Of a DNA stretch of 64,000 nt, positions 33,001-36,000 are shown piece by piece. The stretch is taken from positions 42,836 to 106,835 of the forward strand of contig CAYUZE010000001.1 of NCBI GenBank assembly GCA_964449585.1, given 5' to 3'. Made by a program: the position numbers. Source of the DNA: an uncultured Gammaproteobacteria bacterium (lineage in GTDB: Bacteria; Patescibacteriota; Microgenomatia; UBA10105; UBA927). The first letter of the stretch is position 1. Each line of letters starts with the position of its first letter.

Positions 33001-36000
33001 GAAAAATAGTTGGCATAAACTCGTAAAATCCCGGAATATCACACAAATAGACACTCTCTCGCGACGGGCTTACCGCGCCCTGCTGAAACGGGCTGATGTC
33101 TGTATTGCTCTCTATCATAAGCCTCCGCAGACTCCCTTATATTTTTTCCCTATGAAAATTCTGGACTATATGTATCACCAACGACCGGTGATTGCCTCGT
33201 CCTTCCCGGTCACTGCATCCATCATCACGCACGGGTCTGACGGATTTTTGGTACCCAATGACATTCAGGAAATCACCTATTCGATTATGAAACTTAAAAA
33301 TAATCCCGCCCTCAGAAAAGCCGTTGGCAAAGCGGCGCGTGCGACAATTGCCGGCAGATTTAGCGATCAACAGGCAATGCAAGCGTATAAGGCAGTAGTA
33401 GGATGATCGGGATCCGCACCACTATGTCAACCGTAAATTCACCATATACCCGTTTCGTCATCATCAGTTCGCACCGATCCGGATCGAATTATCTTTCTAG
33501 TTTGCTGTCCAGCCATCCCCAGATTATGTCAATCGGCGAGATTTATAATCCGTCGGTCTTATTTGCCGATCCGGGTTTACCAGGATTGCACCGGAACAGG
33601 GTGGCAAAATTGCTCCGGGACATTGCACCCGTTTGGTTCGTAAAACACGGCATTTATCGTGCATACCCAACGCACATCCGCGCGGTAGGTTTCCGATATT
33701 TTTATTTACATGCGCAGGGGAGGTTCCGTTCGGTTTTGAACTACCTGATAGCGGAAAAGACAATCAAAATCGTTCACCTAAAACGAAGAAATCTCCTCAG
33801 AAGCTACTGCTCGTTACTCGCAGCAGAGCAAACAGGGGTCTGGACAGTGCCGGTATCGTCCGCTCGCACACAACCACCGGTACGGCTTGTCTTGAAACCG
33901 AACGCATGCGCTGCGTATTTTGCGAGAATGGAACGCTTTATGGATACCTATGATAAATATTTCTCCGAACACGATATGCTCCAAATAGAATATGAGCGAC
34001 TGTTATCCGATGCGACTCACGAACAGACTCGGCTGACGACATTTCTCGGAGTAGCACCGTACACACTGACTGCATATACGAAGAGACTCAATGCGACGCC
34101 GCTCCCATCACTTATTAGAAACTATGCATCTCTGGAACGACACTTCCGCGGGACGAAGTGGTACCGGTTTTTTACATCAAACTAGCGCGACAATCGCTAT
34201 CGCACGAAGGATTACTATCAGTTGCCATCATAAAGGAGGGTTTGTGCGACGCTCTTTCCTGTCATCACCGGTGCGTGCGGTAATATTTTCGGCTTACCCT
34301 CAGTAAATCGCAGTCCGTAGTACGGGCACGGACAAACCGCAAACGGACACACCTCCGCGTCCTTAGCCAGGTCTAAGGTACCCTCAAACATATTACCCAT
34401 GACCTTATTGCTTGCATGACAACGAACTACATCACCGTTAAATCTGATATATACGAAGTCACGCCCTGCGCCGCATTTCAAACCTTTAAAGGTGAGATCT
34501 CCGACGATGAAATCCCTGTCTAAATTCGGATCCACATGGGTAGCCCCGATCTTTTCGTGCTTATCAGCGAGAAGAGAATATTTATTAAAAAGTTCCCGTT
34601 CTTTCAATGAATATTGTTGCGGATACTGCTTGTTTTCATATATGCCGCGGAACGACTTTGGACGAATGATAATATCGTCCTTCTGAAATTCTGCTGAGAT
34701 TTTTTCAAATAGGGGAATAACCGGAGGGTTAAACACCTGCGTTACATACGCATTAAATCCTGCTGCGCGTAATTTCTTGTATTTATCGACAAATAAGTCA
34801 ACTTTGTGCCGTTTTAAGCGTTCATTGTAGTGGAGTGCGCAATGGAGGAAAGCCACCCGGGAGGGATCTATTTCGTTGATAAAATCATATACGGTAGTAA
34901 GGGTCAGGTTGGTGTTTATGCTGATATAATGTCTTCTGGTAAGCTTTTTACAAAGCTCTACATATTTCGGATGAATGAACGGTTCCCCGCCGCTCATGTG
35001 AATGAGCCATGTTTTTCCTGATTTATCAAAAAAATCAACGATCTGATCAATGTTTTCATGACCAAGAAAATTTTTGTCTTTTAGCCTCGGATCCGTTGAC
35101 CAAAAACAGTAAGGACAAGAAAAGTTACAATAAAGATTCAACATCCAATCTGCCAGAATATCGTACTTTGGCTCAATTTTTCCAGGAATTTTTTTCATAC
35201 GGGTAGTGAAGGCAAGTATAGCAGATACCGCGGACAAAACACACGGATTTTATAACACATGGTCTCTGCAGGTGCGCATCTTGAAAATCTACTCAAATAA
35301 CACAAACACGATTATAATACTGACACGATTTACTCACTACACATCTTTCACTTGCTCGAATTACAATATGGGTAAAAAAACTCTTGCAGTAACCGGTCTT
35401 TCGGGCGTCATCGGCTCTGTGCTTCTGCGCCGCATAAAAATTCCGAACCACCTGATAGTGGATATGTATCACGATCATCCATATGCGGGAGCAAGTCCGG
35501 TACGTGAACATATACCGTTAAATTTGCTGCATAAAGAAAGTATCATAGCGGCATTAAATAAGGCAAAGCCGGATACAATACTCCATTTGGCCGCAATCAC
35601 CCACATTGATGCTTGCGAAGGTGATAAAAAAAACGGAAAAGAAGGGGTCGTCTGGCGAATAAACGTGGAAGGAACCCGAGCAATTGCCCAATACGGCAAA
35701 AAAAATAATATTCCCGTCATTTATCTTTCAACCGAATGTGTGTTTGACGGAACTATGGATTTTTATAACGAACACGCAAAAAAAAATCCGATTAATTGGT
35801 ACGGACGGACCAAAAGCGAAGCGGAGGATTTCATCCTATCCTCGGCTCCTGAAAACACCGTCATTCGTGCTGCAATTGCCTATCATAAAGAAGATAGCGG
35901 GAAAACATTACTCGGGAGAGTATATTATAGTCTCAAAAATACTACCCGAACGTATGCGGTAACCGATCAATTCATTACCCCGACGTATTCCCATGATATT

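Follow-up and report, generated by a model that had tools for sequence, protein, structure and literature searches.

A predicted NodH-type sulfotransferase with its own candidate sulfate-donor gene in a conserved Wzm/Wzt glycan locus of Candidatus Gottesmanbacteria

The 64,000-nucleotide stretch analysed here (hereafter the window; positions 42,836 to 106,835 of contig CAYUZE010000001.1, GenBank assembly GCA_964449585.1) encoded a sulfotransferase at 33403-34185 on the forward strand, inside a glycan locus of a Candidatus Gottesmanbacteria bacterium. Judged from its sequence and its modelled structure, the open reading frame (ORF) codes for a genuine sulfotransferase of NodH type, soluble and basic. 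It is likely that this enzyme works in the cytoplasm with 3'-phosphoadenosine 5'-phosphosulfate (PAPS) as donor, sulfating a lipid-linked glycan before the Wzm/Wzt transporter of the ATP-binding cassette (ABC) type exports it to the cell surface. A preliminary description of the same DNA had predicted a sulfated cell-surface polysaccharide; hidden Markov models (HMMs), fold, a conserved glycan-locus context and the link to an adenosine 5'-phosphosulfate (APS) kinase fusion supported it, and the product remains a prediction.

Three Pfam models of sulfotransferases matched the protein above their gathering cutoffs and thereby bore out the proposed family. Sulfotransfer_3 (PF13469) scored 48 bits (cutoff 27, E 2.4e-12), far above what chance would give, and the match ran from residue 19 to 218 of the protein and from position 3 to 213 of the 216 in the profile, while Stf0 (PF09037) scored 28 bits (cutoff 22) and Sulfotransfer_1 (PF00685) 22.6 bits (cutoff 22). 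Searching the PDB with a sequence profile returned 9vki, 'LPS sulfotransferase NodH' (E 6e-23, query residues 5-226), and tblastn against annotated plasmids aligned 95-99% of the protein to the rhizobial symbiosis-plasmid gene hsnD (NodH) at 29-32% identity. By sequence, the protein is a divergent new member of the NodH/Sulfotransfer_3 family, and the call at protein level is ordinary, since a 64%-identical relative is already annotated 'sulfotransferase' at NCBI. No hydrophobic segment was present (maximum 19-residue Kyte-Doolittle mean of 0.76) and the composition was strongly basic (34 Lys and Arg versus 15 Asp and Glu). A second sulfotransferase was looked for in the window and not found, 33403-34185 being the only family member there.

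The fold agreed with the family. An AlphaFold2 model built on 12 sequences (mean predicted local distance difference test, pLDDT, 85.4; predicted template modelling score, pTM, 0.84) gave 46 Foldseek matches in the PDB at E <= 1e-3, and all of the top 30 were PAPS-dependent sulfotransferases, Stf0 first and then tyrosylprotein sulfotransferases (TPSTs) and heparan sulfate 3-O-sulfotransferases. Sulfotransferases bind PAPS at a phosphosulfate-binding (PSB) loop, which carries Lys or Arg, and at a phosphate-binding (PB) helix, which carries Ser; in the NodH and Stf0 types the 5'-PSB is an RxG loop (PMC11625862). Both motifs named in the preliminary description were located in the 260-residue ORF, HRSGSNYL at residues 24-31 (33472-33495) and the 3'-PB-like segment HLKRRNLLRSYCS at residues 125-137 (33775-33813). 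The gene and its candidate functional sites were as follows.

33403-34185, forward strand: predicted NodH-type PAPS-dependent sulfotransferase (Sulfotransfer_3), ORF of 260 residues; conserved start ATG at 33424 (253 residues)
33472-33486, forward strand: 5'-PSB motif H24-R25-S26-G27-S28
33538-33540, forward strand: invariant E46, candidate catalytic base
33781-33813, forward strand: 3'-PB motif K127-R128-x-N130...S137

In the model, HRSGS occupied a strand-loop-helix (strand 16-22, loop H24-R25-S26-G27-S28, helix 28-36) and the KRRN...S137 segment a strand-turn-helix (strand 122-127, turn K127-R128-R129-N130, helix 131-144 with S137). Model and PDB matches thus both placed the motif region in a sulfotransferase fold and not in another one. 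R25, S26, G27, S28, E46, K127, R128, N130 and S137 were invariant across homologues down to 29% identity, the four 5'-PSB residues in 12 of 12 aligned sequences. The alignment to 9vki paired RSGS, a Glu, RxN and the Ser with their counterparts, the 3'-PB falling opposite ERENKLASYSS; E46 lay at the end of model strand 41-46, opposite the Glu of 9vki.

NodH (HsnD; Sinorhizobium meliloti and other rhizobia; COG4424 'LPS sulfotransferase NodH'; PDB 9vki) is a biochemically characterised Nod-factor sulfotransferase, which sulfates the 6-OH of the reducing-end N-acetylglucosamine of a secreted lipochitooligosaccharide signal (PMC11625862). It shares PF13469 and the Arg-x-Gly PSB loop with the window protein, is collinear with it over 99% of the query, and both are about 250 residues long, soluble and cytoplasmic. 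The setting differs, Nod-factor synthesis for NodH and a Wzm/Wzt surface-glycan locus here. No NodA-, NodB- or NodC-type family was found in Pfam scans of 50 window ORFs; together with the CPR (candidate phyla radiation) host and the 29-32% identity, this ruled out a functional NodH orthologue. The best fold match was the trehalose 2-sulfotransferase Stf0 of Mycobacterium (PDB 1tex; Foldseek E 2e-6, TM-score 0.56-0.58), which likewise has Arg in place of Lys in the PSB loop and acts on a carbohydrate, as is proposed for the window protein. Its sequence alignment to the window protein was confined to the C-terminal half, and Stf0 starts sulfolipid-1 synthesis outside any polymer export locus, unlike the window gene. 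Membership in the Stf0 equivalog was rejected (NCBIfam NF047724, 21.3 bits against a cutoff of 400).

The genes around the sulfotransferase included, in a single locus, three components of an ABC-transporter-dependent (Wzm/Wzt) pathway, namely the ABC-2 permease, the ABC ATPase and the initiating phosphoglycosyl transferase. Glycosyltransferases (GTs) are given below by family, and L003 and similar labels denote loci fetched from relatives.

23798-24403, reverse strand: small phosphoglycosyl transferase (Pfam Bac_transf, 163 bits) that initiates a glycan on a lipid carrier; same position in L003
24499-25545, reverse strand: NAD-dependent sugar epimerase/dehydratase (Pfam Epimerase, 156 bits)
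25557-26441, forward strand: Wzm-type ABC-2 permease of the glycan exporter (Pfam ABC2_membrane, 72 bits)
26445-27407, forward strand: 320-residue fusion of an NMNAT-like (nicotinamide mononucleotide adenylyltransferase-like) domain and an APS kinase, between wzm and wzt; presumed PAPS supply
27421-28197, forward strand: Wzt/TagH-type ABC ATPase of 258 residues (Pfam ABC_tran; best NCBIfam similarities TagH and galactan Wzt)
28213-29652, forward strand: 479-residue protein of no recognisable family; 449-residue counterpart at the same position in L003
29697-31310, forward strand: 537-residue membrane protein, weakly PMT_2-like, candidate GT-C; counterparts in L003 and L005
31316-32341, reverse strand: GT2 glycosyltransferase, divergent from the GT4 gene (Pfam Glycos_transf_2, 70.7 bits; synteny)
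32333-33406, forward strand: GT4 (GT-B fold) glycosyltransferase (Pfam Glyco_trans_1_4 and Glycos_transf_1)
34218-35237, reverse strand: radical S-adenosylmethionine (SAM)/SPASM enzyme, convergent with the sulfotransferase gene (Pfam Radical_SAM, 58.5 bits); kept in every close relative
35206-36309, forward strand: RmlD-like NAD(P)-dependent sugar reductase (Pfam RmlD_sub_bind, 153 bits)
37302-38213, forward strand: QueC-like PP-loop protein, conserved in the glycan locus; counterparts at L003:15889-16785 and L008:7374-8303

This order was kept almost gene for gene in L003-L008, whose sulfotransferases were 54-70% identical to that of the window, and in these relatives the GT2, GT4, sulfotransferase, radical-SAM and RmlD-like genes recurred as a block, together with the 320-residue APS-kinase fusion. 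The GT4 and sulfotransferase genes were adjacent on the same strand in every close relative (L003-L008, L066). The Pfam matches of the GT4 ORF agreed with the preliminary description, which had coupled the sulfotransferase gene to that of a GT-B glycosyltransferase.

Gene order bears on the acceptor. Sulfotransfer_3 substrates are varied and specificity is unreadable at 29% identity, and TPST1 and TPST2 structures appeared from second place onwards in the fold search; the acceptor might then be a protein tyrosine (compare Xanthomonas RaxST and the animal TPSTs), a lipid or a small metabolite, the locus being incidental. However, TPSTs matched the shared PAPS core alone, and the same-strand GT4 adjacency persisted in all close relatives despite the shuffling of other genes. 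Glycan genes extended for about 20 kb on each side of the sulfotransferase, and NodH, the nearest characterised relative by sequence, acts on an oligosaccharide (PMC11625862). A non-glycan acceptor is accordingly improbable in our estimate.

The second element linking the locus to sulfation was the fusion gene. As described earlier, an APS kinase fusion lies 6 kb from the sulfotransferase; its gene ends at 27407, 6.0 kb upstream. Residues 146-320 form a bona fide, canonical APS kinase. Residues 1-145 form an NMNAT-like HIGH-motif adenylyltransferase domain resembling archaeal NMN adenylyltransferase, with invariant FxGRWxPxHxGH, GRxVG and ISxTxIR. Within it the GRxxPxHxGH and SGTxxR motifs were kept, the intervening segment carried the family-specific invariant GRxVG, and HxGH, ISxTxIR and the extra arginines R48, R60 and R90 were invariant. 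About 100 homologues of roughly 320 residues shared this architecture, some with the reverse domain order (P0103).

The N-terminal domain fell far below the cutoffs of NMNAT equivalogs (NF002243, 31.7 bits versus 127; TIGR01527, 22.9 versus 181) and showed only a trace of canonical ATP sulfurylase (PF01747, 16.1 bits versus 24.3, in the HxxH region; TIGR00339, E 0.023). A PDB profile search with this domain returned NMNAT, NadM, NadR and PPAT and no ATP sulfurylase. A canonical ATP sulfurylase identity was thus ruled out at the family level by PF01747, TIGR00339 and the PDB profile. Because the domain is fused to APS kinase in both orders, stands next to sulfotransferases and occurs in fetched loci that contain neither Sat nor CysDN, an APS-forming role is the simplest reading. 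On these sequence grounds we tentatively propose, as a possibility that falls short of an even chance, that the domain of about 145 residues is a minimal sulfate adenylyltransferase, which would make the fusion a compact, self-contained PAPS synthase; the domain could also adenylylate another substrate. No description of an NMNAT-like/APS-kinase enzyme was found in the literature searched. Among the closest known systems we count the bifunctional PAPS synthases (animal PAPSS1/2, Aquifex Sat-CysC and CysNC/NodQ).

The fusion stood beside sulfotransferases in three lineages. Its gene was located between wzm and wzt in the window, L003 and L004, and after wzt and directly before a Sulfotransfer_3 gene in L062. 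In L063 it had an importer on one side and wzm-wzt on the other, with a Sulfotransfer_3 gene coming next, and in L065 (Omnitrophota) it headed an operon with two sulfotransferase genes. When all fetched loci were surveyed with HMMs, the fusion was present in each CPR sulfotransferase locus whose flanks were long enough, compared with any APS kinase at all in 1 of 52 distant sulfotransferase loci from other phyla (flanks of up to 10 kb on each side). Donor synthesis is therefore dedicated to the glycan locus in the CPR lineage, which would fit a genome-reduced cell with no other use for PAPS. The kinase of the sole distant locus (L010:945-2216) was also an NMNAT-like fusion; its contig is labelled uncultured Gammaproteobacteria, and horizontal transfer or a binning error is possible.

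In the Gottesmanbacteria-like relative L063 (contig_57221 of ERZ25039479), an ABC importer was encoded directly upstream of the fusion (7449-9955), with a binding protein above the NCBIfam SsuA-family (aliphatic sulfonate) cutoff (203.5 bits versus 163.5), which hints at sulfur-compound uptake coupled to PAPS synthesis in that relative. The window held no counterpart of this importer.

The co-conserved kinase also bears on whether the sulfotransferase is active. The protein might be an inactive or non-PAPS relative, such as a binding protein, giving no sulfated product; CPR genomes are strongly reduced, and the fetched loci without canonical ATP sulfurylase would agree with this. Yet all PAPS-binding and candidate catalytic residues were invariant, and a canonical APS kinase conserved in the locus makes little sense without a PAPS consumer. 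We give an inactive protein a very small chance.

In ABC-transporter-dependent pathways the whole glycan is assembled on a lipid carrier at the cytoplasmic face of the membrane and then exported. The analysis itself shows the family, the fold, the conserved motifs, the conserved gene order and the host. On this model we infer for the window locus that the enzyme uses PAPS, that it acts in the cytoplasm and on a glycan, that the product is displayed on the surface, and what single residues do. Assembly would begin at the inner membrane face, with the Bac_transf protein starting the glycan on polyprenyl phosphate as carrier, and GT2, GT4 and further transferases would lengthen it. The sulfotransferase would then pass the sulfuryl group from PAPS, supplied by the fusion encoded between wzm and wzt, to a glycan hydroxyl, which most plausibly belongs to the sugar that the adjacent GT4 adds or to a neighbouring one. 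By analogy with known sulfotransferases, the 5'-phosphosulfate may be bound by Arg25 and the PSB loop and the 3'-phosphate by Ser137 and the PB helix, with Glu46 as a possible general base. The Wzm/Wzt transporter would finally export the finished sulfated glycan to the cell surface, where it might become part of a wall polymer or of a glycoprotein; the window holds three Wzy_C/O-antigen-ligase-like genes and a candidate GT-C. Sulfation before export is the most likely timing, since the enzyme is soluble, PAPS is cytoplasmic and Wzm/Wzt glycans are completed inside the cell.

The same pathway type admits a different role for the enzyme, in which it caps the non-reducing end of the glycan as chain terminator and export signal instead of modifying the chain along its length. 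In Escherichia coli O9a, WbdD adds a terminal phosphate-methyl cap, and the pathway here is likewise of Wzm/Wzt type. The wzm-wzt operon of the window and that of L003 contain the PAPS-supply gene, the window has one sulfotransferase only, and in other relatives the Sulfotransfer_3 gene is near wzt (one gene between in L062; directly after, on the opposite strand, in L063/L064). In the clade of the window, however, the sulfotransferase gene is coupled to the GT4 gene and not to wzt, and no coiled-coil chain-length ruler domain was present. The 258-residue Wzt corresponded to the ATPase domain alone (Pfam, NCBIfam); in the known cap-dependent systems, terminal caps are read by a carbohydrate-binding module at the C-terminus, which this Wzt lacks. 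Capping is in our judgement rather unlikely.

Several observations weigh against cytoplasmic sulfation of an exported glycan. The model had low confidence at residues 50-63 (elsewhere only at residues 1-10), and the Foldseek TM-scores were moderate (0.45-0.58). The 29-32% identity to NodH is too low to transfer acceptor specificity. The source of APS is a further point, as no canonical ATP sulfurylase (Sat, CysDN) was found in any fetched locus, these being loci and not whole CPR genomes. Lastly, no sulfated glycan from any CPR bacterium was reported in the literature searched.

The 5' end of the sulfotransferase gene probably differs from the ORF as first described. The preliminary description had the gene overlap-coupled by ATGA to the GT-B gene; ATGA is literally present at 33403-33406 and GT4 is directly upstream, but the overlap is not conserved and is probably not the real start. 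At the ATGA site the 95%-identical relative has GTGA, and the motif is absent from the remaining loci of a five-locus junction alignment, which ruled out a translational overlap as a conserved feature. The product is probably 253 residues long, starting 17 nucleotides past the GT4 stop, since all nine close homologues aligned begin at the position of M8 and the ATG at 33424-33426 is the sole conserved ATG at the junction in the DNA alignment. The two genes lie close together and are very likely co-transcribed.

Downstream of the RmlD-like reductase gene followed QueC-like, GT4, PIG-L and CapD-like dehydratase genes. The QueC-like protein and the adjacent radical SAM/SPASM enzyme (34218-35237) suggest an unusual sugar modification; in relatives, the QueC-like gene was preceded by Methyltransf_24 and pyridoxal-phosphate-dependent decarboxylase genes. 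As listed, the RmlD-like ORF opens with a GTG and overlaps there with the beginning of the divergent radical-SAM gene. Translation probably starts some 50-70 codons further down than 35206, given that the Pfam domain sets in at residue 60 and that the relatives in L003-L008 are 293-309 residues long. The 479-residue protein, conserved downstream of wzt in relatives, had no Pfam, NCBIfam or PDB sequence match. The 537-residue protein matched Pfam PMT_2 below the cutoff (18.6 bits) and had no PDB sequence match and no other Pfam or NCBIfam match.

Beyond the close relatives, a profile of the sulfotransferase family retrieved 13,577 metagenome cluster representatives at E <= 1e-3 (1,387 at E <= 1e-30), and the family spans many phyla, archaea included. 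The close clade (>50% identity) was small, with ten clusters. A scan of genome contigs for close relatives turned up nothing above 39% identity and did not place this clade; its matches came from many phyla and showed how broad the family is. Some distant members (P0140, P0142, P0150) were giant proteins of 1,000-1,200 residues with two or three tandem sulfotransferase domains, and cyanobacterial loci (L013, L015) carried two or three sulfotransferase genes side by side. According to one key paper, sulfated polysaccharides among bacteria occur exclusively in cyanobacteria (PMC8205485); a review of 2024 counted six genera (PMC11625862). The rarity of sulfated glycans in bacteria, as asserted earlier, thus holds for chemically demonstrated polysaccharides, which are few in these sources, but not for the enzyme family.

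The synechan (xss) cluster of Synechocystis PCC 6803 is a genetically defined bacterial sulfated exopolysaccharide system (PMC8205485). There, too, sulfotransferase genes lie inside a polysaccharide assembly and export cluster, and sulfation is presumed to take place on a lipid-linked intermediate in the cytoplasm (PMC8205485). In contrast to the ABC-type export, CPR host and PAPS-supply gene in the export operon found here, xss relies on Wzx/Wzy polymerisation in a diderm cyanobacterium and has no PAPS-synthesis gene. The sulfotransferase subfamily would also differ from that of XssA/XssE, since no Synechocystis plasmid matched at E <= 1e-3 among the annotated plasmids, a collection in which the presence of pSYSM is unconfirmed.

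The window DnaA was 92% identical to a Candidatus Gottesmanbacteria protein, every named match was from Gottesmanbacteria or Patescibacteria, and a syntenic relative was a 1.23-Mb contig labelled Patescibacteria. From the DnaA identity and this synteny, the host is a bacterium of small genome in Candidatus Gottesmanbacteria (CPR, Microgenomates). It therefore falls outside the groups for which sulfated glycans were listed in the preliminary description (producers of Nod factors, mycobacterial sulfolipids and cyanobacterial exopolysaccharides). A cyanobacterial origin, hinted at by DUF4330 and HpsN-like GT2 matches and a GC content of 46%, was ruled out by DnaA and the Patescibacteria synteny.

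From about 12.4 to 62.2 kb (about 50 kb), the window consisted of nearly continuous glycan genes, next to the following gene.

62272-63639: dnaA, adjoining the glycan region

The glycan region comprised three Wzy_C/O-antigen-ligase-like genes, two Wzx-like genes, Wzm/Wzt, at least ten glycosyltransferases, two radical SAM/SPASM genes, and PIG-L, DegT and carbamoyltransferase genes. A DUF4330 protein was encoded inside it (47127-47942, reverse strand). The window also encoded DnaA, YidC, Jag, MurD, ribosomal protein L25, aminoacyl-tRNA synthetases and a DUF4012 protein; tRNA and other RNA genes were looked for in the window and none was found. A genome of roughly 1.2 Mb, as estimated from relatives, appears to devote these 50 kb near dnaA to glycan genes, or roughly 4% of its length if that estimate holds.

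The new elements are the setting of the enzyme in a conserved Wzm/Wzt glycan module of Candidatus Gottesmanbacteria and the non-canonical PAPS-supply gene in the locus. Should the N-terminal domain of the fusion be an ATP sulfurylase, sulfate activation would have a third and much smaller solution, and the domain might be a useful part for enzymatic PAPS regeneration. Genome-reduced CPR bacteria, some Omnitrophota and others could then sulfate their surface glycans without Sat or CysDN. From a conserved module that brings its own sulfate-donor gene, a surface polymer can be predicted that is sulfated and highly anionic; this Gottesmanbacterium probably displays a sulfated surface glycan. If so, such a strongly anionic coat of CPR cells could matter for their attachment to hosts.

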